Shown piece by piece: positions 12,789 to 62,300 of a stretch of DNA of 64,000 nucleotides. Numbering within the stretch: the stretch's first letter is position 1; the number at the start of each line of letters is the position of its first letter. The translations under genes were made by a program, and so were the position numbers. This DNA is from Selaginella moellendorffii (lineage: Eukaryota; Plantae; Lycopodiophyta): contig NW_003314356.1 in NCBI RefSeq assembly GCF_000143415.4, forward strand, positions 372,001 through 436,000, written 5' to 3'. The notes below the pieces were generated by a model. The model searched no databases. It was not told the DNA's origin and was given only the letters and a program-made list of their open reading frames with translations.

Positions 12789-13044
12789 TGTGAGACACAA
12801 ATCCCTAAGCCCCAAAATGGAGCCAAAAGGGCACCACATGGTGCTGGCCAAAGCAAAAGCCAAACGAATATAACACATTTGAACTAAAAGCTTCGACTTG
12901 AAAGGTCGAGAGTGGGACTAGAACTCCCAACAAAGAGCTCGAGGAACAAGCATGAAGTGAGTAACAAGTGAGTCTCTAGAAAAGGGACACAAGAGGACCA
13001 ACACATGACACGTGGAAGTGTACGAGATGAGTCCGAGATGGACC
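12789..13044 (+). repeat. 5' part of an E-type solo LTR (continues at 23333-23667 on + and 54020->52751 on -)
   Basis: Starts TGTGAGACACAAATCCC. TSD TAAAC at 12784-12788 pairs with GTTTA at 52746-52750. The empty-site homolog is at ~46530-46560. Confidence 0.85.
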
Positions 13045-13815: not shown

Positions 13816-13817
13816 CA

Positions 13818-23260: not shown

Positions 23261-23332
23261 CATGGCGACCACAGTGGGATGGTTGTCACAGAATTTACAT
23301 TTTCTTTTTTTAGTTTTCTCTTTCATGCATGC

Positions 23333-23667
23333 AGGTGTTGGGTGATGAGCTAACCACTGGGAAGTCCAAAACTAGAGTGAACATGGACAGACAAGTGGGG
23401 TAACTTGGTGAAATGTTTAAGAGCCAACTCTAGTTCCCCTGGGAGATCAAATGGTCGATGCTCCCAGTCCAAGTGTGGGTGGCACTACCTACTTAGATAC
23501 CTGGCGTGGCTCAACAGAACCTCGCTCTAAGCCTATGGATAGAGCACCCAAAGGCACCAAAGCAATCCTTTGGTGTTGTGACCAAGGATATGGTTATATG
23601 GTGAGGAAATCCTAAAGGACCGTGGGACTTAGTGATCGGGCCTATGGGCCTTGATCCAGTGGCAGTG
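23333..23667 (+). repeat. Middle part of the split E-type LTR
   Basis: Matches ~43190-43607 of the solo E LTR. Confidence 0.85.
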
Positions 23668-24826
23668 TGTAAGGAACCAACTCGCCGAAGTGTCATAGGC
23701 TAAAGGAGCCTTGAAAGCTTGACCAAAATGATAAAGAGTTCATCGGATGAGACCAAGTCTAAGATTGAGTCCAAGACCGACTCTAAGACCAAGATCGAGA
23801 TAGAGTCCAGAATCGAGTCCGAGACCGACTCGGAGACCAAGTTCGAGTCCGAGTTCGAGACCGAGCTCGAGACGGAGTTCAAGATCCGAAATCGAGTCCG
23901 AGACCGAGTCCGAGGTCGAGTCCGAGGTCGGGTCCGAGATCGGGTCCGAGATCGAGTCCGAGATCGAGTCCGAGACCGAATCCGAAGTCGGATCTGAGAT
24001 CAAGTCCGAGATCGAGCCAGAGACTAAGTCTGAGTACTAATACGGGTCAAGGGGTGAAAGCCCAAAGCGTGCGTCTCTTAGGGGGGGGGGGCTGTAGGGG
24101 GTTCCAAAAGTATAGTAGGGATAGTGAGGTCCAGGAACCAGTCTTGAAGGAACTCTCCAGTGGGGCTTCCAAACCGACTTGAGGTTGAGACTGGGGCCGA
24201 GGGGCCTTGGGTGGGAGTGAGCATGGGCTTGAGTGGTGCCGGAGGGGCCACCCAGGGAAGTGCTCAAGAGCAGCTCCCACTCCTGAAAGGGAAACCGACT
24301 GCGGTGCTCCTGGCTCATGTGGAGTGGTGCCCCACTTGAGTACCTTGTGGCTCATTGGTCCTCGCCCTTCCTAGGGGCTTGGGCCTTCCCTTCGGGATTC
24401 AAGTGGGGGGGTAGAGGTACCCATACCGGGCCGTTAGGCCACGGTGTTTCGCCCCGACGTCCCGAAGCAAGTGCTGCACCCAAGGCTTGGGATTTAGAGG
24501 GTCCCATGATCAAGTCTTGTGGTACCAAGGGGTGTTAGGAATCTGGAGGCTTGGTGTGCTTGGCTGCTTGTGCCTGCAGGGAGTGTAGCCGAACCTTAAG
24601 TTCAGTCTAACCCGGGGAGGGGGATTGGGAGTGATTTGGGAATCCGTGGATGGATAGCTAACACTCCGTCGCTCATGCAGTGAGTAGCTGAAAGCAAGTA
24701 GGACCAAGTAGGAGCTGGTACCATAGGCGAGAACCTTGGCGAGGGAACTTAGCACAAGCCAAGGCAGTGTTGGTTGGATAGAAGAGGTAAGCTGGCAAAT
24801 TGGAAAGGAAAAATTTGTGGCTTACA
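23668..24826 (+). repeat. Family-C chromovirus 5' LTR (1159 bp) with GAGTCC/GAGATC hexamer array
   Basis: TGTAAGG...GCTTACA followed by the iMet PBS TGGTATCGGAGC (24830-24841). Preceded by TSD CAGTG. Confidence 0.92.
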
Positions 24827-27800
24827 ATTTGGTATCGGAGCGTTTTCCTCAGTTCTAGCGAAGGATAGAGGCGGATTGCTGGGAGATGGCAAAGGCAGGG
24901 CGTAAGCGAACCCAGGTGGAGACGGAACCTCCGCCAGAGCTGGAGTCTTCGGTCGAACAAGAGGCTATGGATGAGGAATCCTTGCATGAGGAGGACTCCA
25001 GTGAGGAAACTTCCAAACAGGAGTCCGGTGGCAAGGTTCGATTGTCCAAGGCTCGATTGGACATTCTAGAAGGACAATTGGCACAGACCAATGCCCTGCT
25101 AGAGACTCTTGTGCGTAAGCTAAAGCGTGACGAGAAGTGGAAGAAAAAGTGAAAGACTGCGGATGCTAGCAGCGCAGAAGGTGTGGACCCTTCGGCAGAG
25201 ACTGAGGCAAAACCAGACAAGGTTGAACAGACTGAAGTGGAATTAGTCCCTCAGGCAGTTCCCAAGTACAAACCAAAGCCCCCACCGGTCTTCAAGGGAG
25301 TGAATATAAAGTGGTGGAGGATTGGTTTTACGATATGGAGGACTACTTCCGAGCGTTGCGATTACCGAGCTCGGAAAAGGTCCCATGTGCAAAACCATAC
25401 TTGGCAGATAATGCCAAGTCTTGGTGGAGAACGACAGAGGCCAACGAAGGACCGGTGGCCACTTGGGACATGATGAAGGTGAGGATCCACGCAACTTACG
25501 TTCCTCCAAATGCTACTCTGCATCTAAGGAGGTTGAAGCAGACCGGAACCATTCAGGAGTATGTGAATGGGTTTATGGCAAAGAGGATACTTGTCACGGA
25601 CATGGGGGATATGGATGCGTTCCATGCCTTCATATCAGGTTTGCAAACCTGGGCTCGCGGTGAAGTGATGCGGTGGAACCCAACCAACTACAAGGAAGCG
25701 TTGGATGCGGCCATCAAGGTGCATTTCAACGATAACCTGCGAAAGGGGAACACGACGGGGTCGGGATCCACGTTTAGCAAAGGGGCCAAACCAAGGGGAA
25801 CGTTTAGCATAGGGAAATTCAAGAAGAGTTTCTCTAAGAATGAGTCCTCGGGGTTCTAGAAAGGCAAATCCGGTGGCCAGCGAGCGAGTACGTGGGGGAG
25901 TCAAGCGAAAAGAGACAAACCCACAGATAAGAAGGTCAAGTCGTATAGCAGCGTGGGAAACAATGTATGCTACAACTGCGGTGAAGCGGGACACTTTTCG
26001 AGGGAATGTCCCTACCCAAAGAAGGCCAAAGCCAATATGGCAATCAAGTCGGGTGAAGTCCAAACTGAGGTATATGATCCAGTCCTTAACTAAAAGTTAC
26101 TCATAACATGAGAAACTTTGGTAGAGAGTCATTCGCGACATCTACTAGCCCTCCGAGGGAAGCTCGAAGGTAGCTTTGTTAACATCCTTATTGACACGGG
26201 TGCTTCGGATAATTTTGTGGCTGCAGACATAGTCCGGCAAGCCGAACTAACGGTGGAGCGACTAGGCGAACCAAGGACAATAGAGTTTGTTCAAGGTAGC
26301 CAAAGCACCGATGAGGTACTTTGACAAGCGAGAGTCAAAGTAGGGACATGGAAAGTGGACATGGATTTCACCGTGTTAGACATGGCGGGATTTGACGTGA
26401 TCTTCAGAATGGATTGGTTCAATCGGTTCGTGGTAGCCCTGCATGGACAAGGTAGGAACTTTGTGGTACTGGCAAATGCCTAAGGAAGAAGATCTAGGGT
26501 GGAGGCCCAGGATCTAAAGGTAGGGCAAAGTAAGGCCAAAGAATCCTGCTTAAACCTGGTGTCCATGAGAGGACAACTCACTAAAGGAACTAAGGCAGCA
26601 TTTTTGTGCTTATTCTCGGTGAAGAGTGACAAAAAGACAGGAACGGAAGAAGTACCTTTGGTGATCTAACGGGTGTTGGACCAATTCCAGGATACCATGC
26701 CGGAGGAGTTATCGGCGGGGTTGCCCCCCGCACGACCGATAGAACATAAGATTGAGCTGGTCGAGGGGACTTGTTCAATAGGTTGGGAAAGGCAAAATAC
26801 TTCTCAAGGATTGACCTAAGGTCAGGATACTACCAGATCAGGGTAGCTGAGGAAGATGTCGAGAAGACAACCTGTCGAACGAGGTATGGGAGCTTTGAGT
26901 TTCTGGTGATGCCCTTTGGGCTGTGCAATGCGCCGGCAACATTTTCGGCGTTGATGAACCACATCTTTGTACCCTATCTGGATCACTTCATGGTCGTCTA
27001 TATCGACGACATCCTGATCTATAGCGAGACGCTAGAGGAGCATGCCGAACACTTGGCGAAGGTGTTTGAGAAACTAAGGGAACACAAACTGTATGCTAAA
27101 GAGAGCAAATGTGACTTTGCTCAACAAGAGGTAAAGTTTCTCGGGCATGTGGTGGGCCAGGATGGGCTCAAGGTGGACCCGGAGAAGGTCCAAGCGATCC
27201 AGGAATGGGAGCAACCATCGAATGTACATGAGTTGAGGGCGTTCTTGGGGCTATGCAACTACTACCGAAATTTTATCAGACACTATTCGAGAGTAGCCCT
27301 GCCCTTAACAGACCAAACAGGAAAAGGGAAGATGGTATGGACAGCGGAATGCGAGGCGGCATTCGTCCACCTCAAAGGGAAGTTGAGGAAGGCTCCTGTG
27401 TTGGTATTACCAGACTTTGGTAAGGACTTTGAGGTAGAAACAGATGCTTCAGACTTCGCGTTGGGCGCAGTTTTGAAGCAAGACAAATATCTAGTAGCAT
27501 TCTTCTCGAAGAAGTTGGACAAGGCTCAACGGAAGTGGCCTGCCCACGAGAAGGAATTGTTTGCGGTGGTCAAGGCGCTCAAGGAGTGGCGACACTACCT
27601 TGGGAGACACTTCAAGGTTTACACGGACAATGTGGCAACGAAACACTTCTTGTCACAGCCCGACCTGAGAGGGAAACAAGGTTGCTGGGCCAATGCCTTG
27701 GCCGAGTTTGATTGTGAAATTCTGTACAAGCCTGGGAAAAGCAACATCGTGGCGGATGCACTAAGTCGAAAAGCGAGCTTGAGGTTGGCGATATCCAGCA

Positions 27801-29483
27801 CAACAACAACCTTCGGGGACAATGTGCGGACAGCATATGAGAACGATGGTCTAGCACAAGAAGTGTTGCTGAGGAATCTGGAGGCACAGGAAGCTCACCA
27901 GAGAGGTGAGCTGCCAACGGAAGAGAAAACGAGCTATGCGGAACGCAACAAACTCATCTATTACAAGCAAACGAGGGTGTATGTTTCAGAAGGGGAACTA
28001 AGGAAGGCAGCCTTAGAAGAGTGTCATGACGGACCTCTTGCGGGACACGGCAGAGTGCCCAAGACGATGGGCTTACTCAAGAGGAAGTACCATTGGCCAG
28101 ATATGGCTAAGGACGTCCAAGACTATGTAAAGACATGCCAACATGTCAACAGGTCAAAGCCGTGACTAAGGCTAGTGGGGGCTTGTTGCAAAGCATCCCA
28201 ATTCCACATCGTCTGTGGAAATGTCTTACGATGGACTTCATCACGGGACTTCCCCCAAACGAGGGGTTTGATGCGATATTCGTGGTGGTGGACCAATTTT
28301 CAAAAATGGCACATTTCATACCCACCACAACGGAAGTGGATGCGGAAGGTGTGGCGAAGGAAGGCTCCAGTGTTGGCATTACCAGATTTTGGTAAGGACT
28401 TTGAGGTAGACACGGATGCTTCGGACTTTGCGTTGGGCGCAGTTTTGAAGCAAGACAACCATCCAGTAGCATTCTTCTCGAAGAAGTTGGACAAGGCTCA
28501 ACGAAAGTAGCCTGCCCACGAGAAGGAATTGTTTGCGGTGGTCAAGGCGCTCAAGGAGTGGCGACACTACCTTGGGAGAAACTTCAAGGTTTACACGGAC
28601 AATGTGGCAACGAAACACTTCTTGTCACAGCCCGACCTGAGAGGGAAACAAGGTCGATGGGCCAATGCCTTGGCCGAGTTTGATTGCGAGATTTTGTACA
28701 AGCCTGGGAAGAGCAACATCATGGCGGATGCGCTAAGTTGAAAAGCGAGCTTGAGGTTGGCGATATCCAGCACAACAACAACCTTCGGGGACGATGTGTG
28801 GACAGCATATGAGAACGATGGTCTAGCACAAGAAGTGTTGCTGAGGAATCTGGAGGCACGGGAAGCTCACCAGAGAGGTGAGCTGCCAACGGAAGAGAAA
28901 ACGGGCTATGCGGAACGCAACAAACTCATCTATTACAAGCAAACGAGGGTGTATGTTTCAGAAGGGGAACTAAGGAAGGCAGCCTTAGAAGAGTGTCATG
29001 ACGGACCTCTTGCGGGACACGGCAGAGTGCCCAAGACGATGGGCTTACTCAAGAGGAAGTACCATTGGCCAGATATGGCTAAGGACGTCCAAGACTATGT
29101 AAAGACATGTCCAACATGTCAACAGGTCAAAGCCGTGACTAAGGCTAGTGGGGGCTTGTTGCAAAGCATCCCAATTCCACATCGTCTGTGGAAATGTCTT
29201 ACGATGGACTTCATCACGGGACTTCCCCCAAACGAGGGGTTTGATGCGATATTCGTGGTGGTGGACCAATTTTCAAAAATGGCACATTTCATACCCACCA
29301 CAACGGAAGTGGATGCGGAAGGTGTGGCGAAGCTGTTCTTCGAACAAGTGGTTCGAGTACGGGGAAGGCCGGAAGAGATCATCTCAGATCGAGATAAGAT
29401 CTTCACTAGTAAGTTCTGGAGGACTCTCCTGGAACAGTATCGCACCAAGTTGAAATTTAGCACAGCCTATCACCCACAGACAG

Positions 29484-29530
29484 GTATGGGGTATTAAGTC
29501 AAGTTTGGTGGCACTAACACTTCTTGACAG
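29484..29530 (+). other. Putative spliceosomal intron 1 (47 nt) in integrase core
   Basis: CAG|GTATGG...CACTAAC ACTTCTTGACAG|AC. Removal gives HPQT-D-GQTERVN and exact D(35)E spacing. An identical copy is at 56440-56486 (-). Confidence 0.85.
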
Positions 29531-29948
29531 ACGGACAAACGGAAAGGGTGAATAGGCAGCTGGAGGATTATTTGTGATGCTATGTCTCGGGAGACCAGAC
29601 CAATTGGGTAAGTCATTTGGGCCTTGCGGAAATGTGTTATAACAACTCACCACATTTGAGTATTGGGGTGAGTCCATGGGAAGTCATCAATGGGCGAGCT
29701 ATTGAAGGTCCTGTGGAACTCGGCGTGGCCGAGTATCATGGAGAGTTACCGGCAGTGGAGGCATTCACGGCGGAAAGACTCAACATTTGGAATCTAGTGA
29801 GGGATTCCTTGGAACGAGCTCAACAAAGGCAAACCAAGTACGCAAACTTAAAGCACCGGGATGTAGAGTTCAAAGCTGGGGAGAAGGTGTGGCTGAACAC
29901 CAAGAACCTCAGGCTACCAAGTGGGATCAGCCGAAAGTTGACCCAAAG

Positions 29949-30000
29949 GTAAAAATGCATGTATTCCTATAAATGAATTGATCTTGAGTTCCTTAAGCAG
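29949..30000 (+). other. Putative spliceosomal intron 2 (52 nt) before the GPY/F motif
   Basis: AAG|GTAAAA...CCTTAAGCAG|GT, AT-rich. Removal gives KLTQRFAGPYKI. The copy at 55970-56021 (-) ends in TAG. Confidence 0.85.
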
Positions 30001-30209
30001 GTTCGCGGGGCCTTACAAGATTGAGGCACGAATCGGTAAAGTGGCTTACCGACTCCGACTTCCTCGAGAGATGGGAAAGATGCATCCCATGTTCCACGTG
30101 AACTTACTCAAGCCGTATTTTGAGGATCTGCTTTGCAAGGACCAAGTAAGACCTTTACCTGAGGTTATCCAAGGGGAAGAGGAATACGAAGTCAAGGCCA
30201 TCCTCAATG

Positions 30210-30949
30210 CGGGGGGGGGCTGCAGGGGGTTCCAAAAGTAGGGATAGTGAGGTCTAGGAACCAGTTTTGAAGGGACTCTCCAGTGGGGCTCCCAAACCGA
30301 CTTGAGGTTGGGATTGGGATCGAGGGGCCTTGGGTGGGAGTGAGCATGGACTTGGTTGGTGCCAGAGGGGCCATCCAAGGAAGTGCTCAAGAGCAGCTCC
30401 CACTCCCGAAAGGGAAACCGATTGCAGTGCTCCCGGCTCATGTGGAGTGGTGCCCCACTTGAGTACCATGCGGCTCATTGGTCCTCGCCCTTCCTAGGGG
30501 CTTGGGCCTTCCTTTGAGATGGAAGTGGGGGGGTAGAGGTACCCACACCGGGCCATTAGGCCACGGTGTTTCGCCCCGACATCCCGAAGCAAGTGCTGCA
30601 CCCAAGGCTTGGGATTTAGAGGGTCCCATGATCAAGTCTTGTTGTGCCAAGGGGTGTTAGAAACCTGGAGGCTTGGTGTGCTTGGCTGCTTGTGCCTGCG
30701 GGGAGTGTAGCTGAACCTTAAGTCCAGTCTAACCCGGGGAGGGGGATTGGGAGAGAATTGGGAATCCGTGGATGGATGGCCAACGCTCCGTTGCTTGTGC
30801 AGTGAGTAGCTGAAAGCAAGTAGGACCAAGTAGGAGTTGGTACCATAGGCGAGAACCTTGGCGAGGGAACTTCGCAAAAGCCAAGGCAATGTCGGACGGA
30901 TAAACGAGGTAAGCTAGCAAATTGGAAAGCAAAAAATTTATGGCTTACA
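30210..30949 (+). repeat. Family-C 3' LTR, 5'-truncated, belonging to the second C insertion
   Basis: Matches ~24081-24826 with noticeably more substitutions than 54026-55185 does. Ends GCTTACA. Confidence 0.88.
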
Positions 30950-33931
30950 TATTGAGCATACACCTCCAGCTCTTGAGAACTTTGCAAATGAGATGCGGCA
31001 GCTGAAGGAGATCATACTTTAGCAACAATCACAACATGATAAGCTGCTCTAGGAGCTGGTGGAGTCCAGGAAAGAGGCCATTGCAGCTCAGGAACGCAGA
31101 TTTAAGTCCCATTGGTGCACTCACTGCGAGATGAACACACACAACACACAGCACTGCTTCAAGCTTCACCTAGATCTTTGGCCTCCATCTTTTCAACGTG
31201 TCCAACAACGTCCCTTTGCGGACAACTCCACATCGTCTCGGGGTCCAAAGACATATCAGGAGCAGTTGGAGCAACAAGCAATTGAGGCAACCCCTTCGTC
31301 AAGCAAAGGCAAGGCACAAGCCTCATCGGTCAACACGATTTTGGTAGCCGAGGAACTCTATAGACAATAGTAGCAAACCGCAGCCACTTGAGCCCAAGCG
31401 AAGAAGAAAGCAGCAGCTCAGCCTGCCATAGATCCCCCAGTGTCGGTTAAGAGTGGATCTCTGTTGGCACCAGATCTAGTGACACAGAGGGTGGCTTGTA
31501 AACTCCTCTTCAAGTCACTACTGTCTTCTCTTTCTGAGATCTCACCAATAGCTATTCCTATTCTGGAGTTGGTTCTTCAACAGCTAGTTCACACTCTCGT
31601 CACCTTTTTGCTCCAAGACATGTTGTGTTTTGTCCCAGGATTCAGCCAGCGTTTAGAGGAGTTTGCACGGTTAGGAACACTAGAGAGCACTCTCAAGAGG
31701 ACTCCTCAAGAGATGCACATTGTCGACATGATAAGATATGGTGGAGATCCTAGCCCATTCTTCATCCTGGTGCAAATTGGTACTTCCTCTTCTAGGATGG
31801 ATGCTTTGGTTGACTCCGGTTCTGGAAACAACATTATCTCTCTTGAAGCTGCCCTTTTAACACAGCTACAAATCACTAAGAGCTCCTCCATTGTGCTCAA
31901 GACCTTTGCCAACCACACCATTCCTCCAGCGGGCATTTGCTGTGGTGTCAAGGTCTCAGTGCAGGGTGTTGTTTCTGAGGTAGATTTCCTCGTGGTTGAT
32001 TACCAACGTCTTGGAACATTCTTTTTCAAGGACTCTATCATCCTTGGCGATGCATCTTAGTGATGAGGACAAGCTTCATGCACATGACTTAGAGGTTCTT
32101 GCCTTGGAAGAACAGTGATAATCCACATGAGAACATCTCCTTCGAGGCAAGCTGAAGATTAAGTCAGTCATTGATCATCAACGGTCTGCCGAACCATTCA
32201 AAGATGGCAATCTTGTTGTACTCAAGGAGTTTACACCACCTTCGAAGTTCTCCCCTCGCTGGACCAGCCCCTACTTTGTCCAGCAATACGTCGGAGGTGG
32301 AGTATATGTGCTAGTTGATGTTGATGGATGTGAACTCCCACATGCTCACAACCACTCTCATCTCAAACGCTTCATTCGGTGAGACATTCCTCTTCTCTTC
32401 TTTTTCTTTTTCTTTTTCTTCCTTTCTTTCACTTTACTTTCTTGGCTACTTTTCTTACTTTCAGAGGGTGTTTCTCCATTGGACCATGGCCCATGCCTTG
32501 GATTTTGTGCTCAGGCTGCATTGCTATTTGTATGGAGGTCCCTTGCTTGGCTTAGTCTATATTCCAGGTTCTTTGGTCCTTCCCTTAACATTACTATACC
32601 CCACACATTTCCCACACTCATTCTATATCATCTACACTCACAGTTCCATCACCCATCACTTCTAGCAGCGTTGGCCGCACTTATCTCTAGATGCCCATTT
32701 TGCATCTTTCATTCTTTCACCATCATTCACATCTCTATTTGAGGTTACATTTACACCATACCATGGACACACATACATGCACCAACAACAAAAGATGCCA
32801 CCTAATTTGGACGTGCCATTTCCAAGATATCCTTCTGACCATTTGTCGACAACGCACTAGCTTTTCTAGAGCAACTTTATTCCAACCAAGTGAGCTTGTT
32901 CACTCAAGGCACCTAGGTGGATCTTTAAGCAAGGCCACAGAAGCCAAAAGCACTTTCTTCTGCTCCAACACTTAGTGGACACATGCCACCTTCCTTTACC
33001 GGCAACCTAACAACTACAACGTCCTTTTCAGCTGTTGTCTTCTTCAGTCCGACACATTAGACCATTGGCCTAACACTTTAAGAGATGGCCACCATTTTGG
33101 TGCTCCACCATATCACTCCACCATATCGGTACTGGAGCAAGCGCAGGAGTAGGAGCGAGAGCAGGTGGTTACTGGTTACAGGTCCCCAGTACGTCTCCTT
33201 CCATTTTCACCTTTATTATTCTTATTTAAGAGATGGCCTCCTTTTCAAAGTGCCACCACCATCTCGGCACTCCACCATCTCACTCCATCTTTCATCATTT
33301 CCACACTTACCACCCTTGGGCAACACATCCCCTCTTCTACCTCTTTTTCTTTTTCGATTTCAGCCAAACCTTGGAGCATACCAGAAGTCAACAAGAGGCT
33401 ACATTTGCATATTACACTTTCCTAAGCCAAAATCCAGGTACGGGTTAAGTTCTTTGGGTACTCACTCTTTTTCCTCTATTTTCCTCCTCTTTTCACAATT
33501 TTTCTGCACTTTTTCTTCAACTTCAAGATCCAATTTGACTACAGCGTTTCCCACCAGGTTTTCCTCCCTCTTTCCAAACTTCACACCTACCTCTTTGCTT
33601 TCTTTTTCCACTTTGCTTTCTAGAGTTTCTACTATTTCACGCAGCTACCAGCACATGGCTTCAGTAGCAGAGGTACTCTACACTCTTCAGAGGGTTCTCG
33701 TGCGTCTGGAGCTAGTGCAATCCACCATGGTCGCATGTTAGGGCATGGCCACCGAGAGAGTGAGAGAGAGAGAAAGAATATTCTGGTCCTTAGAATATTC
33801 CCCATCTTCCTTGTATAAAACCCTTGCCTCACAAGGGCAAGGGGGGGGGGGGGGGGGATTTTGTGGAGAGCATTGGAACATTTCTCATGTTTGAGTGAGC
33901 GTTGGGGGAAGTGCCCCTCCTTCCCCCAACA
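30950..33931 (+). mobile_element. Element D, 3' half: gag Zn-knuckle, protease, integrase C-terminal remnant (RT/RH absent) and short LTR 33736-33931
   Basis: CTHCEMNTHNTQHC; ALVDSGSGNNII; KFSPRWTSPYFV at ~32245-32280. LTR TGTTAGGG...CCCCCAACA is followed by CATG. Confidence 0.75.
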
Positions 33932-35190
33932 CATGACTGTGCTTGCCAACACTGCCACTTGGTCAGGGCTAGAAGGCCTACCCACTAAGTCCCATTGACA
34001 TTTGGGACTTCCTTGCCACGTGAATATATCCTTAGTCACTACACAAAAGGATTTCTGCTCTTCTTTTTCTCAAAGCAAGACTCCAATAAGCCACACTAGG
34101 CAAGTAGTTAATGCCACCCACTTTTGGATTGGGAGCATCAACCATTTGATCTCGTAAGGTAGTTAAAGCTGCCTCTTGAACACTTCACCTAAGTACTCTA
34201 TTTGTCCGTCTGTGCTCACTTTAGCTTTGGGCTCCTCAGTTCTTATATTATCACCCACTAAGTGGGTATAGCCTTCCTTGGTCACACAAGCCTTTGTTAG
34301 CTAAAATGATTCCATTGGAATCCTCCCCTTACTATACTTTTGGAGTTTATCAAACCTACCAAGGTCTGGGAAATGATCACTATAGGCTTTCATCCTCGGC
34401 CTTGGAATTGGACTCAGACTTGGACTCAGACTCAGACTTGGTCTCAATCTCAATTTCAGTCCCAGACTTAGTCTCGGTCCGAGTGTCTGTCTTGGTCCCA
34501 ATCTCGGTCTTGGTCCCAGTCCAGTCTTGGTCCCCATCTCATACTCCTTCTTGGACTTCATCTTGGACTCCACCTCAAACTCCATCTCAGACTCCATCTC
34601 AGACTCCATCTTAGACTCCATCTCAGATTCAATCTCAGTCTCAGTCTCAGTCTTGGCCTTACTCTCAATATCGGTCTTCATCTCAGTCTCAGTCCCAGTC
34701 CCAGTCTTGGTCCCCACCTTGAAGTCCTTCTCAGACTCCTTCTCAGACTCCATCTTAGATTCCATCTTAGACTCCTTCTTAGACTCCATCTCAAACTCCT
34801 TCTCAAACTCCTTAGACTCCATCTCGAACTCCTTCTTAGACTCCTTCTTAGACTCCATCTCGAACTCCATCTTAGATTCCTTCTTGACTCCTTCTCGAAC
34901 TCTTTCTCAGACTCAGATTCAACACTTCCATGTGTCACAACAGTTGCCATATGTCAGTGCTTCTCGTGTCCCTTTTCTAGAGGCTTGCTTATTGATCTCT
35001 TCATGCTTGTTCCTTGAGCCTTCATTAGGAGTTCCACTCCCACTCTCGACTTTTTGAGTTAGAGATTTTAGTCCAAATGTGTTATGCTCATTTGGCTTTT
35101 CAGCCACTACCACGTGACACCCCCTTAGCTCCACTTTGGGCTTAGAGATTTGTGTCTTAGACTTCCCTTGGAGGGGTAGTAGATGTTACA
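33932..35190 (-). repeat. E-subfamily LTR, 5' part (host of element D, continues at 61908-62300 on +), with degenerate hexamer array
   Basis: Homologous to E LTR blocks. Starts TGTAACATC on the minus strand. (GACTCCATCTCA)n-type array at ~34410-34915. Confidence 0.75.
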
Positions 35191-44528: not shown

Positions 44529-44845
44529 TGTAGAAGTTTTCTCACTAAAGTCCTCCTTATACAAGGATTTCTCATCTATAGCTTCTTGTTTAACTAGAGG
44601 CTCCAATTCTGAAGGAGGTTCCATCTCTGTCCTGGTTCTCTTATTCTCTACTTTAGCCATCTCCTAGCACTTCGCCTTTATCCTTCACTAAAACTGAGAA
44701 AAAGGCTTTGATACTAAATTATAAGCCATAATTTTTTTTTTACAATTTGCCAACTTACTTCATTTATCCGACCACCGCTAGCTTGGCCTTTGTTAAGGTC
44801 CCTTACCAAAATTCCAACCTATTGTACTAGCTTCTACTTGGTCTT

Positions 44846-50800: not shown

Positions 50801-52208
50801 GCAGCAAGGGTGGCTGACTCCGTTGGTCATTTCCTTGTCGACGACGGCCGGAAGGTGTCTGAGCTGGTAGCGCATCCATATTAAACAAAGAGGTTGCATC
50901 CTAACTCATTTAAGCTGGTGCATTTCTCACATAGTGTGAGTACCGTGAACTTTTTCTGGAGTTGTTTCCTTGGAAGTATTCTAGACTTGAGTATGCATCG
51001 ACGAGGTCATCAATCTTCCCTAGGGGGGGAGAGTGTTGCAAATGTTACTTCAGGTATCGAAAGTTACCTATCGGATAGTCCTTATGGACACTCTTTCCTT
51101 ACTGCCATGATGGCAGGAGGTCGGTATTGCTAGGCCCATTATCAGTCTCCGCCTAAGCTAGTTGAGAAACTGGTCTTCATGTGTGCATTTGACCAGATGA
51201 GCATAAGGAAGGAATTCCTAAGAGTCTATTTAGTCAAGCATACTTGACCTGGTTAGAGAAACTCATTCGTTAACTTGCACTTGTTAGTGTTGGGAACCCC
51301 CACGATATTGAGATTCGGAACCCCTACGATATTGAGATTGGTCCCTCAATATTCACTATATGATATCTTACCGTGTCTGCCAAACACCCTCGCTATCATG
51401 CCCTTTGTATTAGTCTCATTTCGGTCCCAAATGCTATTTATGGAAAGTGTCCAGATTTGCTCATTTGGCATATCTACAGAATGTAGAGATTGTCCTGAAC
51501 ACAACGGTGTTCATCCCGTGTCCAAATTCACAATCTAGGGACATTCCATATTTAGTAAGTTTCGAGCTTGTCCCAGAGACTAACTCCTGATACTAAGGGA
51601 GGCTTGGGGTGAAAGCCCAAAGCATGTGTTCCTCAAGCGAGCGGGGGGGGCACTATGGGGGGTTCCAAATGTATAATAGGGATAGTGGGTAGGTCGGGCA
51701 TGGCTGACCAATCTGAGGCATAGTCTAGCTCCCACTTGCGTGTCTGTCCTTGTTCTGCGTCCAGCTTGGGTCTAAGCCCAAGTTCTATTCCATGCTAGCT
51801 AGTGGAGTACCCATGTCCTTGTGTTAGGCCACCAGTATGCCAAAATAGCACTAAACTCCGTTTGGCTCCGTTTTGTATGCTCATTCTGGCATTGGGATGC
51901 TAGTTGCTCTAGAACTGTTCCAAGTCGCTCCGGGCTCCTGTCCCTTCACTCCTTAGGCTGTATGCTTGGGAGTTGCTCCGTGGTTCAATTTCGTCACTCC
52001 TTGGCTTCATGCTTGGGAGTTTGGCACCGTTCCTTTGTTCAGTGGCCCAAGGCCCTGAACCTCGGGTTCCACACCACTGTCCTTTGGACACATGGCATAT
52101 GACGTATGGCATCTTTCACATGGCACAAAGAGGGTTTAGGTTCTCCTTCGTGGTGTTATCCTATGGTAAATCACCAGAGGATAAAGGGTAAAAACCACAT
52201 GCGCTACA
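44846..52208 (+). mobile_element. Family-F LTR element lacking gag-pol (LARD-like) and carrying sequence X
   Basis: LTRs at 44846-45995 and 51034-52208. Degenerate iMet PBS at 45998-46009, PPT AGGGGGGGAGAG at 51022-51033. Flanks GTCTT/GTCTC. Confidence 0.85.
47499..47786. mobile_element. MITE (288 bp) with 26-bp perfect TIRs and a 4-bp TSD ATTG
   Basis: ATGCTTTATTTTGTTAAAGTGGAACT ... AGTTCCACTTTAACAAAATAAAGCAT around an AT-rich core. Absent from the homologous site at ~11850-11870. Confidence 0.9.
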
Positions 52209-52750
52209 GTCTCGATCATAAGAAAGGTCATGAATAAGGATAGGCTTGATATCACTACAATACTCCAAGTCTTGAGCAAGTGGATGTACATTGATAATAG
52301 ACCAAAATACAATAGAGATAGGGATAGGGATCAAGTGTTAACTCTCTCCCTTAACTATTCTTATTTGGTGGCAACCGCCACTTCTTCCTGAGTCTTGATT
52401 GTCATGATTATAGCTTTGATGTTAAGAGAGTGGCACCTATGAATTCATTCTTAGCATAATCCTAACTCTTAAAAAAAGTCCCAAATGCATGGTTAATCAG
52501 TTGTGCTTCAACCATATTATATGAGCTTGTGCTTGAGCTCATAAGATAGATTAAAATGTTCTATTTAAATGAGTTTGTGCTTGGGCTCCTATATAAGGTA
52601 TACTAGCAACTTAAAGTTACATTTTGAGGTAGCAAGATTAATTTTAGCCTATAGGGATTAGTCTATTATATTAAATAGTTATAGCCGCACTCTCTCATAC
52701 ACTTTTTTTGGATTGAATCAAAAGCAATGCAAAAGCAAGCTTGAGGTTTA

Positions 52751-54020
52751 TGTAAGCGACTAATTTTTCCATTCTACTTTAGTCACTTAGCCACACCTTC
52801 GACCACTTGGAGGAGTCTCACTTGCAACCTCCATAAGTCCTATTCCAGACTTGGGCTTGCTAGCCTTGAGAATAGCATCCCCGTCACTCAACTTTTGCAC
52901 TTGGTCCAAGTGCTCCACATGTCCAATCCCATAACCAACACCCCAAAGTACCACCGACATATCAGATTGTTACGCTAAGGCCATGCCCCTTCACCTTGGT
53001 CACACCGGTGGTCTAACACCACCTGCACCACAGTCTCGTCTTTCAAAAACTGGGCTATCCATCCATGTAGCGCATGTGGTTTTTACCCTTTATCCTATGG
53101 TGATTTACCATAGGACAACACCATGAAGCGGAACCTAAACCCTCTTTATGCCATGTGTCACATGCCACGTGTCTAAAGGATAGTGGTGCGCAACCTGAGG
53201 TTCAGGGTCTTGGGCCACTGAACAAAGGAACAGTGCTAAACTCCCGAGCATGGAGCCAAGGAGTGACAGAACCTGACCACAAAGCAACTCCCGAGTGTAC
53301 AGCCCAAGGAGCGAAGGGACAAGAGCCCGAAGCAACTTGGAACAGTCCTAGAGGAACTAGCATCCCAATGCCAGGACCAGCATGCAAAACAGAGCCAAAC
53401 GGAGTCTGGCACTATTTGGACACGGGACAAACATCATTGTGTTCAGGCCAATCTCTACATTCCGTAGATATGCCAAATGAGCAAATCTAGACACTTTCCA
53501 TAAATAGTATTTGGGACCAAAGTGAGACTCACACAAAGGGCATGATAGCAAGGGTGTTTGGCAAACAAGGAAAGCTATCATCTAGTGAATATTGAGGGAC
53601 CAATCTCAATCTTAATATTGCAGGGGTTCTTGATACTAGCAAGTGCAAGCCAATGACAGGAGTTTCTTAAACCAGGCTGAGTATGCTCAATAAGAAACAC
53701 ATAGGGTTCCTACCTTATGTTTATCCGATTTAAGTACACGGTCATTGACCAGTTTCTCAACTAGCCCAAGTGGGAACTGATAATAGGCCCAACAATACTG
53801 ACCTCCTACCATCATGGCAGTAAGGAAAGAATATTCGAAAGGATTAGCCAACAAGTAACTTTTGATACCCTAAGTCATATTCACAATAATCCATGAGTGA
53901 TCATCCCAGATCCACTCCTTAGCATCCTTAGGATGCCTGTAGATATGGGGAATAGCCTTCCCCAATATCCCTTTTCCGGTCCCCACCAGGTCCCTTTCTG
54001 TCCATGGCCGTGTTCACCAA
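52751..54020 (-). repeat. 3' part of the split E LTR (interrupted by a solo F LTR)
   Basis: Reverse complement of ~43608-44049. Ends GTCGCTTACA followed by TAAAC on the minus strand. Confidence 0.85.
53066..53888 (-). repeat. Solo F LTR (internally deleted)
   Basis: Reverse complement of the F LTR. TSD ATCCA at 53061-53065 and 53889-53893. Confidence 0.88.
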
Positions 54021-54025
54021 CACTG

Positions 54026-55185
54026 TGTAAGCCACAAATTTTTCCTTTCCAATTTGCCAGCTTACCTCGTCTATCCGACCAACACTGCCTTGGCTTGTGC
54101 TAAGTTCCCTCGCCAAGGTTCTCGCTTATGGTACCAGCTCCTACTTGGTCCTACTTGCTTTCAGCTACTCACTGCATGAGCAACAGAGTGTTAGCTATCC
54201 ATCCACGGATTCCCAAATCACTCCCAATCCCCCTCCCCGGGTTAGACTGAACTTAAGGTTCGGCTACACTCCCCGCAGGCACAAGCAGCCAAGCACACCA
54301 AGCCTCCAGATTCCTAACACCCCTTGGTACCACAAGACTTGATCATGGGACCCTCTAAATCCCAAGCCTTGGGTGCAGCACTTGCTTCGGGACGTCGGGG
54401 CGAAACACCGTGGCCTAACGGCCCGGTATGGGTACCTCTACCCCCCCACTTGAATCCCGAAGGGAAGGCCCAAGCCCCTAGGAAGGGCGAGGACCAATGA
54501 GCCACAAGGTACTCAAGTGGGGCACCACTCCACATGAGCCAGGAGCACCGCAGTCGGTTTCCCTTTCGGGAGTGGGAGCTGCTCTTGAACACTTCCCTGG
54601 GTGGCCCCTCCGGCACGACTCAAGCCTATGCTCACTCCCACCCAAGGCCCCTCAGCCCCAGTCTCAACCTCAAGTCGGTTTGGAAGCCCCACTGGAGAGT
54701 TCCTTCAAGACTGGTTCCTGGACCTCACTATCCCTACTATACTTTTGGAACCCCCTGCAGCCCCCCCCCCCCTGAGAGACGCACGCTTTGGGCTTTCACC
54801 CCTTGACCCGTATTAGTACTCGGACTTAGTCTCTGGCTCGATCTCGGACTCGATCTCGGATCTGACTTCGGATTCGGTCTCGGACTTGATCTCGGACTCG
54901 ATCTCGGACTTGATCTCGGACCCGACCTCGGACTCGACCTCGGACTTGGTCTCGGACCCGATTTCGGATCTCGGACTCCGTCTCAAGCTCGGTCTCGAAT
55001 TCGGACTCGAACTCGGTCTCCGAGTCGGTCTCAAACTCGATTCCGGACTCTATCTCGAACTCGGTCTTAGAGTCGGTCTTGGACTCGATCTTAGACTTGG
55101 TCTCATCCGATGAACTCTTTATCATTTTGGTCAAGCTTTCGGGGTTCCTTTAGCCTACGACACTTAGGCAAGTTGGTTCCTTACA
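54026..55185 (-). repeat. Family-C 3' LTR, the true partner of 23668-24826
   Basis: Near-identical to 23668-24826. PPT TATGGGTGGTGGAGT at 55186-55200. Followed on the minus strand by TSD CAGTG. Confidence 0.92.
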
Positions 55186-55969
55186 ACTCCACCACCCATA
55201 GAAGAAGTTCGATGCCCACATCGAACGTCTCTTTTTTATCCTATGACTTGTTGACCATGTCTCCGGGGGCATCCCCCCACTTAGCGGTATGCCTAAGTTA
55301 GCTTCCCCGGCCAAGAGCCCATGACAACGGAATATAGGTGTCCTTATAATCCTCACCTCACCACGCCCTAGTATGGGGTCGGGACTTGAACCCAGCCTTG
55401 CTTTACTAGGGGGTTGGGACTCGAACCCAACCTCCTTAGAATACGTCTACAGATTCGACATCCCCGCAGGGAGTTGGGGGTAGCTCCCTACGCCTGGTCG
55501 ACCTAGCTAACCCATGCTAATTAGTTTACCTTCGGCGCGCCTTCGGGTCCCAACATATGCCATTGCTCAACTTCACAAATTAATACTTTGATTGAACTTT
55601 GCATAAGTACATAGAGTTCTGCCTTGCAGAAATTCCTCCACTAGATCTTGCGCATTCGCTAGATTCTCCTCCGGTTCCCATGTTGCTTCGCAGTGTGGAA
55701 ATCCTTTCCACTTCATATGGAACTCTCTCACCTCGCGTCCTTGTCGCTTGCTCTTGCGCGCATTGAGGATGGCCTCGACTTCGTATTCCTCTTCCTCTTG
55801 GATAACCTCAGGTAAAGGTCTTACTTGGTCCTTGCAAAGCAGATCCTCAAAATACGGCTTGAGTAAGTTCACGTGGAACACGGGATGCATCTTTCCCATC
55901 TCTTGAGGAAGTCAGAGTCAGTAAGCCACTTTACCGATTCGAGCCTCAATTTCGTAAGGCCCCGCGAAC

Positions 55970-56021
55970 CTACTTAAGGAACTCAAGATCAATTCATTTA
56001 CAGGAATACATGCATTTTTAC
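55970..56021 (-). other. Intron 2 in the second C copy
   Basis: 52 nt, GTAAAA...CCTTAAGTAG. Confidence 0.85.
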
Positions 56022-56439
56022 CTTTGGGTCAACTTTCGGCTGATCCCACTCAGTAGCCTAAGGTTCTTGGTGTTCAGCCACACCTTCTTCCCAGCTTGGA
56101 ACTCTACATCCCGGCGCTTTTGGTTCGTGTACTTAGTTTGCCTTTGTTGAGCTCGTTCCAAGGAATCCCTCACTAGATTCCAAATGTTGAGTCTTTCCGC
56201 TGTGAATGCCTCCACTACGGGTAACTCTCCATGATACTCGGCCACGCCGAGTTCCACAGGACCTTCAATAGCTCGCCCATTGATGACTTCCCATGGACTC
56301 ACCCCAATACTCGAATGTGGTGAGTTGTTATAACACATTTCCGCAAGGCCCAAATGACTTACCCAATTGGTCTGGTCTCCCGAGACATAGCATCACAAAT
56401 AATCCTCCAGCTGCCTATTCACCCTTTCCGTTTGTCCGT

Positions 56440-56486
56440 CTGTCAAGAAGTGTTAGTGCCACCAAACTTGACTTAATACCCCATAC
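56440..56486 (-). other. Intron 1 in the second C copy
   Basis: Same 47-nt GTATGG...CTAAC...GACAG sequence. Confidence 0.85.
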
Positions 56487-59400
56487 CTGTCTGTGGGTGG
56501 TAGGCTGTGCTAAATTTCAACTTGGTGCGATACTGTTCCAGGAGAGTCCTCCAGAACTTACTAGTGAAGATCTTATCTCGATCTGAGATGATCTCTTCCG
56601 GCCTTCCCCGTACTCGAACCACTTGTTCGAAGAACAGCTTCGCCACACCTTCCGCATCCACTTCCGTTGTGGTGGGTATGAAATGTGCCATTTTTGAAAA
56701 TTGGTCCACCACCACGAATATCGCATCAAACCCCTCGTTTGGGGGAAGTCCCGTGATGAAGTCCATCGTAAGACATTTCCACAGACGATGTGGAATTGGG
56801 ATGCTTTGCAACAAGCCCCCACTAGCCTTAGTCACGGCTTTGACCTGTTGACATGTTGGACATGTCTTTACATAGTCTTGGACGTCCTTAGCCATATCTG
56901 GCCAATGGTACTTCCTCTTGAGTAAGCCCATCGTCTTGGGCACTCCGCCGTGTCCCGCAAGAGGTCCGTCATGACACTCTTCTAAGGCTGCCTTCCTTAG
57001 TTCCCCTTCTGAAACATACACCCTCGTTTGCTTGTAATAGATGAGTTTGTTGCGTTCCGCATAGCCCGTTTTCTCTTCCGTTGGCAGCTCACCTCTCTGG
57101 TGAGCTTCCCGTGCCTCCAGATTCCTCAGCAACACTTCTTGTGCTAGACCATCGTTCTCATATGCTGTCCACACATCGTCCCCGAAGGTTGTTGTTGTGC
57201 TGGATATCGCCAACCTCAAGCTCGCTTTTCAACTTAGCGCATCCGCCACGATGTTGCTCTTCCCAGGCTTGTACAAAATCTCGCAATCAAACTCGGCCAA
57301 GGCATTGGCCCATCGACCTTGTTTCCCTCTCAGGTCGGGCTGTGACAAGAAGTGTTTCGTTGCCACATTGTCCGTGTAAACCTTGAAGTTTCTCCCAAGG
57401 TAGTGTCGCCACTCCTTGAGCGCCTTGACCACCGCAAACAATTCCTTCTCGTGGGCAGGCCACTTTCGTTGAGCCTTGTCCAACTTCTTCGAGAAGAATG
57501 CTACTAGATATTTGTCTTGCTTCAAAACTGCGCCCAACGCAAAGTCCGAAGCATCCGTGTCTACCTCAAAGTCCTTACCAAAATCTGGTAATGCCAACAC
57601 TGGAGCCTTCCTCAACTTCCCTTTGAGGTGGACGAATGCCGCCTCGCATTCTGCTGTCCATACCATCTTCCCTTTTCCTGTTTGGTCCGTGAAGGGTAGT
57701 GCTACTCTCGAATAGTGTCTGATAAACTTTCGATAGTAGTTGCATAGCCCCAAGAACGCCCTCAACTCATGTACATTCGATGGTCGCTCCCATTCCTGGA
57801 TCGCTTGGACCTTTTCCGGGTCCACCTTGAGCCCGTCCTAGCCCACCACATGCCCGAGAAACTTTACCTCTTGTTGAGCAAAGTCACATTTGCTCTCTTT
57901 AGCATACAGTTTGTGTTCCCTTAGTTTCTCAAACACCTTCGCCAAGTGTTCGGCATGCTCCTCTAGCGTCTCGCTATAGATCAGGATGTCGTCGATATAG
58001 ACGACCACGAAGTGATCCAGATAGGGTACAAAGATGTGGTTCATTAGCACCAAAAACGTGGCCGGCGCATTGCATAGCCCAAAGGGCATCACCAGAAACT
58101 CAAAGCTCCCATACCTCGTTCGACAGGTTGTCTTCTCGACATCTTCCTCGGCTACCCTGATCTGGTAGTATCCTGACTTTAAGTCAATCCTCGAGAAGTA
58201 TTTTGCCTTTCCCAACCTATCGAACAGGTCCTCAATTCTTGGCAAAGGGTACTTGTTTTTCTTTGTATACTTGTTGAGCAACCGGTAGTCTATGCACATG
58301 CGCATAGAATCATCTTTGTTTTTCACAAATAACACCGGCGCCCCATACGGCGACTTGCTCAACCTAACATACCCTTTGTCCACCAACTCCTCTAGTTGGC
58401 ACTTGAGCTCCTTGAGTTCTTTTTCGTTCAAACGATAGGGTGGACGAACCACCGCCTCAGCACCCTCGACCAGCTCAATCTTATGTTCTATCGGTCGTGT
58501 GGGGGGCAACCCCGCCGGTAGCTCCTCCGGCATGGTATCCTGGAATTGGTCCAACACCCGCTGGATCACCAAAGGTACTTCTTCCTTTCCTATCTTTTTG
58601 TCACTCTTCACCGAGAGTAAGCAGAAAAAGGCTGCCTTAGTTCCTTTGGTGAGTTGTCCTCTCGTGGACACCAGGTTTAAGCAGGAATCTTTGGCCTTGC
58701 TTTGCCCTACTTTTAGATCCTGGGCCTCCACCCTAGATCTTCTTCCTTGGGCATTCGCCAGTACCACAAGGTTCCTACCTTGTCCATGCATGGCTACCAC
58801 GAACCGATTAAATCAATCCATCCCAAAGATCATGTCAAATCCCGCCATGTCCAACACGGTGAAATCCATGTCTACTTTCCATGTCCCTACTTCGACTCTC
58901 GCTTGTCGAAGTACCTCATCGGTGCTTTGGCTACCTTGAACAAACTCTATTGTCCTTGGTTCGCCTAGTCGCTCCACCGTTAGTTCGGCTTGCCGGACTA
59001 TGTCTGCAGCCACAAAATTATCCGAAGCACCCGTGTCAATAAGGATGTTAACAAAGCTACCTTCGAGCTTCCCTCGGAGGGCTAGTAGATGTCGCGAATG
59101 ACTCTCTACCAAAGTTTCTCATGTTATGAGTAACTTTGAATTAGGGACTGGATCACATACCTCAGTTTGGACTTCACCCGACTTGATTGCCATATTGGCT
59201 TTGGCCTTCTTCGGGTAGGGACATTCCCTCGAAAAGTGTCCCGCTTCACCGCAGTTGTAACATACGTTGTTTCCCACGCTGCTATACGACTTGACCTTCT
59301 TATCCGTGAGTTTGTCTTTTTTCGCTTGACTCCCCCACGTAGTCGCTCACTGGCCACCGGATTTGCCTTTCCGGAACCCCGAGGACTCATTCTTAGAGAA

Positions 59401-60242
59401 ACTCTTCTTGAATTTCCCCCTGCTATACGTTTCCCTTGGTTTGGCCCCTTTGCTAAACGTGATCCCGACCCCGTCGTGTTCCCCTTTTGCAGGTTATCGT
59501 TGAAATGCACCTTGATGGCCGCATCCAACGCTTCCTTGTAGTTGGTCGGGTTCCACCGCATCACCTCGCCGCGAGCCCAGGTTTGCAAACCTGATATGAA
59601 GGCATGGAACGCATCCATATCCCCCATGTCCGTGACCAGTATCCTCTTTGCCATGAACCCATTCACATATTCTTGGATGGTTCCAGTCTGCTTCAGCCTA
59701 CTCAACTCATCTCTCAGATGCAGAGTGGCATTCGGAGGAACGTATGTTGTGCGGATCCTCGCCTTCATCATGTCCCAAGTGGCCACCGGTCCTTCATTGG
59801 CCTCTGTCGTTCTCCACCAAGACTTGGCATTATCTGCTAAGTATGGTTTTGCACATGGGACCTTCTTCGAGCTCGGTAATCGCAACGCTCGGAAGTAGTC
59901 CTCCATATCGTAAAACCAATCCTCCACCACCTTATAGTAATTCACTCCCTTGAAGACCGGTGGGGGCTTTGGTTTGTACTTGGGAACTGCTTGAGGGACT
60001 GATTCTACTTCGGTCTATTCGACCTTGTCTGGTTTTGCCTCAGTCCCTGCCGAAGGGTCCGCACCTTCTGCGCTGCCAGCATCCGCAGTCTTTCTCTTTT
60101 TCTTCCGCTTCTCGTCACGGTTTAGCTTGCGTACGAGAGTCTCCAGCAGGGCATTGGTCTATGCCAACTGTCCTTCTAGCACGTCCAATCGAGGCTTGGA
60201 CGACCGAACCTCGCCACCGGACTCCTGTTTGGAAGTTTCCTC

Positions 60243-61907
60243 CAGAAAGAGAAGACAGTAGTGACTTGAAGAGGAGTTTACAAGCCACCATTTGTGTCAC
60301 TAGATCTGGTGCCAACAGAGATCCACTCTTAACCGACACTGGGGGATCTATGGCAGGCTAAGCTGCTGCTTTCTTCTTCGCTTGGGCTCAAGTGGCTGCG
60401 GTTTGCTGCTATTGTCCAACACCTAAGAAGGTCAGCAGATCACTCCCCTTCTATAGAACATGGAGCTGAGGTCAACCTAAAGGTGGCTGCACCATAGCTC
60501 GTAGATCTAAGTCATTATAATCTACCGAGGATGGAGAAGACTCGGCCCGAGAAGGTGCTTTATCGTACCTAAGTTGCTTTTGGATATTAGAAAGTTTACT
60601 CTGTACCTTAGGGCTTTGAGGTATGGTAAGAGGGTGCCAATTTGTCACATGTCTAGTTTGTATCAGCATCAAATACCCCGAACACTGCAAATGCCCAGCC
60701 AAGGCAACTAGGTTGACAGGAGCAAGAAGACTGTAAGCTAGTGCTCAAGTCACTCAAAGTTGCCCATTATGCTTGTGACGAAGAGAAATAAGGGTGAAAA
60801 TGGAAGGAGACATAGGCCTCAAGCACACGTAACTGTTGACCCATAGGGCAATTGCCAAAGTAGCTGTTGGAGTAGCCGCTGGAGTAGCCGGTAACCAGTA
60901 ACTGGTAACCGGTAACTAGGGACCTGTAACCTGTAACCAGTAACCCCCGCTCTCGCTCCTACTCCTGCGTCTGCTCCAACACCAACTCCTATCCCTATTC
61001 CTATGCCTACCTATTCCTTGAAGATTGCTTCATTCCCAAAGAACTCCCAACTTGTTCCTTCCCCATTTTGACTATTAGGCTTGTTGGAAAGGGCTCAGCC
61101 CTGTCTACCCTCTATCACAGGAATTCAGGAAGAAGCTGCCTCAATATTCCCCAAAATCCAAGAAAAGGTAGCCTAGAATGCCAATATTGTGGAAAAACAT
61201 GTGTATGTCACTGATGTAGATCAATATTAAGGCGCCGTTGGTATTTTCGAAAAGCCTAGGAGCAGGAGCACCTCTAGAAACAAACGGCATACAAAACAAC
61301 GCCTAGAGGAGCACGAATTCCTGCTACAAAGATGACCCAATTTAGCCAGAGAAGAAAATCCTTTTGCATGCCACTGAATTAGCCAAGTCTAGAATCACCA
61401 CTACTCATAGATCTAGGCCAGATCTACTAGCCCAAATACACTACCTTGAGAAATTGGGCTGAGGATCCAGGTGAGAAAGGGAAAACCACAAAATGTTCAT
61501 CTAACCGAGCCAAGAAACATTGTATCTCTTCAAATACTACACGGCTTGATGAGTGCCATACCTTGCTAGAAAGAGGAGCTCCAGACCTATCCAACATGTC
61601 CAAGATCAAATAAAACTACCACAAGATGAACAAAGAATTCCTTCCCAAAGTCTGAGGCCAAAGGAAAGAGAGAGAAATGACACCTCAGAAAGTGTTGTGC
61701 GTCACGCCAGGTTCACCATTTGTTCGGGGAAGGAGGGGTGCCTCCCCCAACGCTCGCTCAAACACAAAAAATTCTTCAATGCTCTCTACAAAATGCCCCC
61801 CCTTGCCCTTGTGAGGCAAGGGTTTTATACAAGGAAGATGGGGAATATTCTAAAGACTAGAATAATCCCTCTCTCTCTCTCACTCTCTTGGTGGCCACAC
61901 CCTAACA
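60243..61907 (-). mobile_element. Element D, 5' half: LTR 61721-61907, tRNA-Trp-type PBS 61702-61718, leader
   Basis: The LTR is the reverse complement of 33736-33931. PBS TGGTGAACCTGGCGTGA resembles the complement of the plant tRNA-Trp 3' end (TGGTGAACCCGACGTGA, recalled). CATG at 61908-61911. Confidence 0.8.
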
Positions 61908-62300
61908 CATGGACAGAAAAAGACTTAGTAGGGACCAAAGAAGAGATATTAAGGAAGGGTGTTCTTCATGTATCTGGGCATCCTAAGGATGCTAAGGTGT
62001 GGTCATGGGATGACCACTCATGGATGGATAGCCCAGGCTTTGGGAGACAAAACTATATTACAAGTGGTCTTGGAATACCCACGAGACAAAAGTGAAGGGA
62101 CATAACTTTAGTGTAATGGGCTAATATATTAGTGGTACCTTTGAGTGTATGTCATGGGGTTAGATATGTGGAACTTTTGGACCAAGTGCAAAGGCTGAGT
62201 GGCATAGATGCCATTCATGAGGCTAGCATGTCCCCAAGTTAGGAATAAGACTTACGCTGGTTGTGAGTGAGACTCTTCCAAGTGGCCAAAGGTATGGCTA
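61908..62300 (+). repeat. E-subfamily LTR, 3' part
   Basis: Matches ~1840-2228 and continues 33932-35190 across element D. Confidence 0.75.

Follow-up and report, generated by a model that had tools for sequence, protein, structure and literature searches.

Element C, a chromovirus of the Ty3/Gypsy type, is present as two copies in opposite orientation within a 64-kb stretch of the Selaginella moellendorffii genome (contig NW_003314356.1, positions 372,001 to 436,000 of the forward strand; hereafter the window), and the DNA between the two copies is probably inverted. The window is N-free, has a GC content of 44.6%, and is composed of nested long terminal repeat (LTR) retrotransposons. The inversion is present in the sequence as given and is probably real in the genome. 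The likeliest origin, to which we assign a probability of roughly 70%, is ectopic homologous recombination between the C interiors, which flipped the 26-29 kb between them. The inversion alone is ordinary, another clear example of a familiar mechanism; the unusual part worth following is a pair of short inserts in the integrase region of both copies, which was not noticed in the first reading of the sequence.

The evidence for the inversion begins with target site duplications (TSDs) whose members have been separated. The left C copy opens with the 5′ LTR of copy a (23668..24826, +; TG..CA ends, primer-binding site next), preceded by CAGTG (23663-23667), which terminates the middle piece of a solo LTR, E1 (23333..23667, +). 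The 3′ LTR of copy a lies at the far right (54026..55185, -; polypurine tract upstream) and is followed on its own strand by CAGTG (54025-54021). The first-pass annotation proposed that these two LTRs are near-identical and that their flanks rejoin into an intact E LTR; 39 of 1159 sites differ between them, and all four E-LTR paralogues used as queries (43480-43760, 41660-41930, 36530-36800, and 63690-63960) align to both flanks, meeting at a 5-6 bp overlap. The host LTR is divided in the same manner, as had also been claimed: TAAAC borders E1 both where it begins (12789, +) and where it ends (52751, -). The TSD and 5′ piece of E1 occupy 12784..13044 (+), where the LTR is broken by element B (13045-23332); the 3′ piece, with the solo LTR F4 within it, occupies 52746..54025 (-; TAAAC at 52750-52746). 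In the one paralogue tested for this empty site, the two flanks align next to each other and overlap by 5 bp (46545-46549).

Element D, the host of the second C copy (copy b), provides the third pair. Its 3′ half (30955..33935, +) and 5′ half (60422..61911, -) carry LTRs at 33736-33931 (+) and 61907->61721 (-) that have CATG in common, and the proposal that their flanks rejoin as an E LTR is borne out by two of four E paralogues, which reach both halves at most 12 bp from the junction, one of them with an exact 4-bp overlap at 41782-41785. The remaining two come that near to one half only. The 14 matching bases at fixed places in the three pairs have a joint chance of 4e-9, a figure to be read with the CAGTG and TAAAC pairs being nested and probing one join, hence not fully independent. 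In addition, TATTG follows the 3′ LTR of copy b and TGTTG ends the 5′ half of D, which is probably a fourth split TSD, that of copy b, with one mismatch. Control elements wholly within the inverted segment retain direct TSDs (E4, CACAC/CACAC; F4, TGGAT/TGGAT; F2-F3, GTCTT/GTCTC with one mismatch), and the flanks of element B (GGACC/AGGTG) show no match. The LTRs and TSD of copy a are now 30 kb apart on opposite strands, with the hosts E1 and D split likewise, and the inverted segment measures between 25.5 kb and 35.2 kb, in agreement with the 25-35 kb first estimated.

The LTRs are cross-paired between the two copies. Over the shared part, 12 of 744 sites separate the left copy-a 5′ LTR from the 3′ LTR at the far right, against 55 of 738 for the neighboring, truncated copy-b 3′ LTR (30211..30954, +, with flank TATTG); the latter is equally distant (55/738) from each copy-a LTR. 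Five family-rare alleles occur in the right LTR, one of them at low depth, and four are found in the left 5′ LTR against one in the neighboring 3′ LTR. Both C copies are chimeric: the left joins the copy-a 5′ LTR to the copy-b 3′ LTR, and the right joins D and a filler to the copy-a 3′ LTR. The filler, 174 bp that replace the 5′ LTR of copy b (60243..60421, -, with TGTTG before it), differs at 4 of 174 sites from the D sequence at 31363-31536. Intact-element callers and LTR-pair dating would mis-pair such copies and return a divergence of 7.5% instead of 1.6% over the shared part. Even the correct copy-a pair is 6.5% apart over the CpG-rich first 415 bp (23668-24082) and 1.6% apart over the rest (24083-24826), so that CpG content weighs heavily on any date taken from whole LTRs.

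Opposite orientation, split TSDs, and cross-paired LTRs constitute the published signature of ectopic recombination and support the origin first suggested for this inversion. According to PMC2775673, that signature comprises homologous opposite copies at the breakpoints, exchanged TSDs, and chimerism of both copies, all of which are found here; inversion 2z3 of Drosophila buzzatii, generated by Galileo elements, displays the same three features. The present case differs from 2z3, as described there, in that the elements are nested LTR retrotransposons separated by ∼27 kb, with a visible conversion tract and duplication, one copy without a 5′ LTR, and no un-inverted allele encountered. Non-allelic homologous recombination is described as a standard source of plant inversions in a review (PMC13516404). 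Ty3/Gypsy elements are enriched at inversion breakpoints in the rice pan-genome (PMC10030860), and ∼47% of deer mouse inversions below 1 Mb carry homologous transposable elements at both ends (bioRxiv 10.1101/2024.05.29.596518). Those inversions were detected by genome comparison, with long-read checks in rice, whereas the present one was recognized from nested TSDs within a single haplotype. Literature searches on inversions and conversion returned, among the papers listed, no plant case with nested split TSDs. By itself the inversion matters little, although the visible tract and duplication recommend it for teaching.

The C interiors indicate where the exchange may have taken place. The left interior (24827..30210, +) contains gag, reverse transcriptase (RT), RNase H, integrase, and SH3 regions, with its 3′ end deleted and a 232-bp deletion at 26767; the right interior (55186..60242, -) contains gag, protease (PR), RT, RNase H, integrase, and a chromodomain. 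Outside one tract the two diverge by 4-5% (5′ part, 95/1764 and 46/1165 sites; beyond the tract, 25/460). Within the tract (left 27933..29750, +; right counterpart 57611->56220) only 1/426 and 8/1392 sites differ, or 0.2-0.6%. The tract core shows 3 differences where ∼18 are expected from the copy-a LTR rate (p=1e-5), which makes the tract younger than the insertion of copy a. A 973-bp tandem duplication in the left interior (27386..29332, +; copies 27386-28358 and 28359-29332; microhomology 2 bp) overlaps its start, and copy 1 turns from divergent to right-copy type at ∼27933. Over the first 546 sites, duplicate 1 differs from the right copy at 21 and duplicate 2 at 5 (p=0.002), so the low divergence of the tract is not simple gene conservation. 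The longest exact run common to both copies is 445 bp. The first-pass annotation suggested that switching of single-nucleotide differences along the interiors would locate the crossover; the tract emerges from such a comparison as the best candidate, with the crossover itself not pinned down. The homogenized tract is likely the site of both crossover and conversion, with 57065-56220 as the likely zone on the right.

Rare alleles point the same way. The public contigs of the C family gave 19 left-copy rare sites (at least 85% other letters) among 40 of 129 rows listed, and among these the right copy has the same allele at 9 of 11 tract sites and at none of the 3 sites in the 5′ part; immediately past the tract it matches at 1 of 3, and within the LTR at 0 of 2. 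In the converse comparison, which covers 13 rare interior rows of the right copy, the left copy matches none of the 7 rows from the 5′ part, both tract rows, and both rows from the 3′ part, and the remaining two have no counterpart. The full right-copy list, 18 rare sites, is an incomplete sample in which one of nine known tract sites recurred, so its densities cannot assign sequence to copy a or copy b. Two premature stops common to both copies (28739/57231, not in duplicate 1, and 29575/56395) point to transfer after insertion. CpG loss in the right copy is 13/158 in the 5′ part and 5/21 in the 3′ part, compared with 23/142 in the copy-a LTRs (p ∼0.04-0.05, unadjusted); the lower loss in the 5′ part is as a chimeric right copy predicts. 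A related gag (36233-35162) was tried as an outgroup and assigned 19 left-derived and 37 right-derived of 64 sites; it was rejected because A/T-ward decay biases the call. No close relative of C usable as an outgroup was found, the nearest being at most 68% identical in RT, at most 49% in integrase (among longer proteins), and 37-53% across related loci.

Several observations weigh against recombination between the interiors. A conversion tract appears identical with or without a crossover, and the switch in decay polarity is weak (p=0.05-0.09). Three rare alleles are shared beyond the tract (29817, 30129, and 30134), one rare allele is common to all three LTRs, and there is another identical run of 229 bp at 26093-26321. 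The TSD of copy b is mismatched, and its 5′ LTR is gone.

Recombination between the interiors would fit the following sequence of events. Copy b would have entered D, its 5′ LTR then giving way to filler copied from D and part of its 3′ end being lost; copy a would have followed, entering the solo LTR E1. One copy would next have broken within its integrase region and used the other as repair template, with a crossover and the conversion of ∼0.85-1.4 kb, and the 973-bp duplication likely formed by template slippage during or shortly after that repair. The divergences of the D LTRs (11%), B (6.4%), C copy a (3.4%), filler (2.3%), and tract (0.6%) rank in agreement with the nesting order. The inverted DNA consists of retroelement debris only, in the scans made, and no host effect is expected.

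An unlikely alternative is that no inversion took place: a conversion without crossover would have homogenized the tract, and an assembler misjoin or haplotype switch within it would have produced the apparent reversal. The tract does form a two-copy inverted repeat (∼1.4 kb at 99.4%, including the 445-bp exact run) distinct from the rest of the family, the classic circumstance in which a segment ends up assembled in the wrong orientation. Public contigs of the C family, however, fragment to pieces of ∼70-120 bp while the window is N-free, which suggests that it was probably built from long reads or a clone spanning 1.4 kb. As the exact run does not exceed 445 bp and the 64 kb contain no N, only reads below ∼1.5 kb should be misled, and the tract still holds 8 differences, 3 of them CpG-type. 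Public contigs compared with 22500-34500 (four sets) and 54000-60450 (one set) include none, among those listed, that bridges the C element or a breakpoint, and they have no bearing on whether the inversion is real or misjoined. The public runs listed for the window numbered 13, all of them contigs, with a best word share of 0.47; of the 10 in which the sequence was located, none was RNA.

No likelier is a real inversion broken elsewhere, at the 5′ end of the interiors (∼25003/60242), with homology repair at one end, end-joining with filler at the other, and the tract as a later conversion. The right interior does start abruptly at the filler, both halves of the left interior have deletions, some small and some large, and the filler divergence of 2.3% is near the 1.6-3.4% of the copy-a LTRs. 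CpG loss, at first sight favorable in being greater in the left 5′ part than in the right (35 vs. 13 of 158 sites), turns against this account once the LTRs are included, as the value for the copy-a LTRs (0.16) lies closer to that of the left 5′ part (0.22, p=0.24) than to that of the right 5′ part (0.08, p=0.049). Two events would also be needed, whereas a single crossover accounts for both inversion and tract. A flip outside the plant or an integrase-driven hybrid insertion is very improbable: inverted repeats can recombine in clones such as large-insert clones, but nothing points to a clone source, and hybrid insertion, which mimics exchanged TSDs in the case of DNA transposons, predicts identical flanking copies according to PMC2775673, while those seen here are 4-5% apart outside the tract.

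Element C itself belongs among the chromoviruses. Its domain order is gag-PR-RT-RNase H-integrase followed by SH3 and a C-terminal chromodomain (Pfam Chromo, E=8e-16 at 55576-55911), and it has TG..CA LTRs, a primer-binding site, a polypurine tract, and a TSD of 4-5 bp. The primer site presumably resembles plant initiator tRNA-Met. The closest RT relatives are those of at most 68% identity noted above. The chromodomain retains three aromatic residues at positions that we read as cage positions, and this aromatic motif is reported for non-seed plants alone (PMC6317226). Together with the primer site, the motif makes it likely that the host is a non-seed plant.

Alignment to uninterrupted relatives reveals that both C copies shift frame twice in the integrase, at identical places. 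Compared with the relative P0127, both contain exactly 47 and 52 additional nucleotides. Insert 1 (29484..29530, +, in the integrase core of the left copy; 56486-56440, -, in the right) lies inside the HPQT-DGQTER motif, begins with GTATGG, contains CACTAAC, and ends with ACAG; we take CACTAAC to be branch-point-like and the insert to stand directly before the third catalytic acid of the integrase. Insert 2 (29949..30000, +; 56021-55970, -) starts with GT, ends with AG, and stands directly before the GPY motif and SH3 part. The codons flanking both inserts match those of relatives with no gain or loss. Random inserts have GT..AG ends in 16 of 3434 placements at 47 nucleotides and 33 of 3429 at 52, or jointly ∼5e-5. 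The GC content of the inserts is 43% and 31%, respectively, compared with 49-50% in the surrounding sequence. Short direct repeats flank both (GACAG and AGGT), which is the arrangement predicted when introns arise through insertion at proto-splice sites.

Neither insert was seen in the relatives of C that were compared. Eighty related loci (37-53% identical) were scored by tblastn, a motif screen having located the motif in 23. No covered locus has insert 1 (74 uninterrupted, 3 shifted without a long insert, and 3 uncovered) or insert 2 (63 uninterrupted and 17 uncovered). An apparent insert in one locus, L045, proved to be a frameshift instead. The integrase frames of elements B and E0, when read, contain no such inserts. 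Within the C family, the depth of public contigs inside the inserts resembles that at adjacent coding positions, and insert 1 is crossed gap-free by a contig of a second organism; the inserts are apparently carried by most of the family. No exon-to-exon joint was present among the joints listed, 15 of 152 in one set of contig comparisons and 15 of 125 in another.

Insert 1 contains a stop, and the frame downstream of it is nevertheless apparently under purifying selection, as variation within the family or in the second organism touches five sites there, every one a third codon position at which the change is synonymous when read in the shifted frame (p=0.004). Of the four variable sites on the upstream side, all are third positions and three are synonymous. 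This comparison used 28 of the 35 differences of the second-organism contig, with four rows without family depth (two and two) excluded; the six sites specific to the window in that exon comprise three synonymous and three that are not. From this pattern of variation we infer that splicing best explains the preserved downstream frame. On present sequence evidence, it is probable that a high-copy plant chromovirus keeps two spliceosomal introns (47 and 52 nucleotides) in its integrase gene through reverse transcription, such that spliced RNA alone would lead to active integrase and unspliced RNA would be copied, amounting to a splicing gate on integration. Unspliced RNA would yield Gag and an RT-bearing, integrase-dead Pol and act as the template, with spliced RNA supplying the integrase.

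The position and lineage of the inserts are unlike those in Ogre or Copia elements. The Ogre intron, in the Tat lineage, is present in genomic copies, and its excision from some transcripts is needed for the full polyprotein, as stated in PMC6317226 and PMC12786077. The C inserts likewise have GT..AG ends, are kept in genomic copies, and break the polyprotein frame, and the working, an intron-gated polyprotein, would be similar. In contrast with what those sources describe, C has two putative introns, which lie in the integrase of a chromodomain element rather than between protease and RT of a Tat-lineage element. In the Ty1/Copia elements EVADE and BARE1, splicing also separates the RNA pools of a plant LTR element; the spliced RNA yields a short Gag and the unspliced Pol, whereas spliced C RNA would make full integrase (PMC12786077). 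The same 2025 review presents plant LTR elements as generally intronless and names Ogre and EVADE as exceptions. A narrow literature search tied to Ogre, which could miss fungal and algal elements, found no introns in pol like those of C. Introns in pol should be lost through the element's own copying, and a family that keeps two provides a direct test of the separation of mRNA and template pools. Families of this kind would be annotated as integrase-dead.

The remainder of the window is retroelement sequence. A Pfam scan of 85 frames returned retroelement domains and one weak sub-threshold hit, and a search of the window found no tRNA genes. The passive interior of the inverted segment (33932..52750, strand unassigned) consists of nested pieces of the retroelements E, F, and H. 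Element D (30955-33931 and 60422-61907) has LTRs of just 187-196 bp, a 4-bp TSD, and a primer site that we assume to be Trp-like; it contains a zinc-knuckle-like motif and a weak protease match, with no RT or integrase core hit in Pfam, and a 51-bp stretch is present in both its 5′ and 3′ halves. Element B has long extra frames at 20002-20799 (+) and 21493-22356 (-), within 19590-22400 behind a partly deleted integrase, for which Pfam gave no match. Element H (44845-44527 and 36219-35162, -) is related to C (gag ∼77%); its 5′ leader is split by an E3-E2a element, and it has no clear TSD. E4 (42180-44049), with TSD CACAC, is a solo LTR within the LTR of E3, and its internal repeat is expanded. 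At 62304-62854, an F-type LTR piece (-) adjoins a 212-bp piece of the same LTR (+) at a C run (∼62630-62642), a micro-inversion or fold-back that was then joined to an E 3′ interior. Two separate rearrangement junctions (30210/30211 and ∼62642) terminate where an LTR has its long stretch of G, a hint that such G runs are fragile sites.

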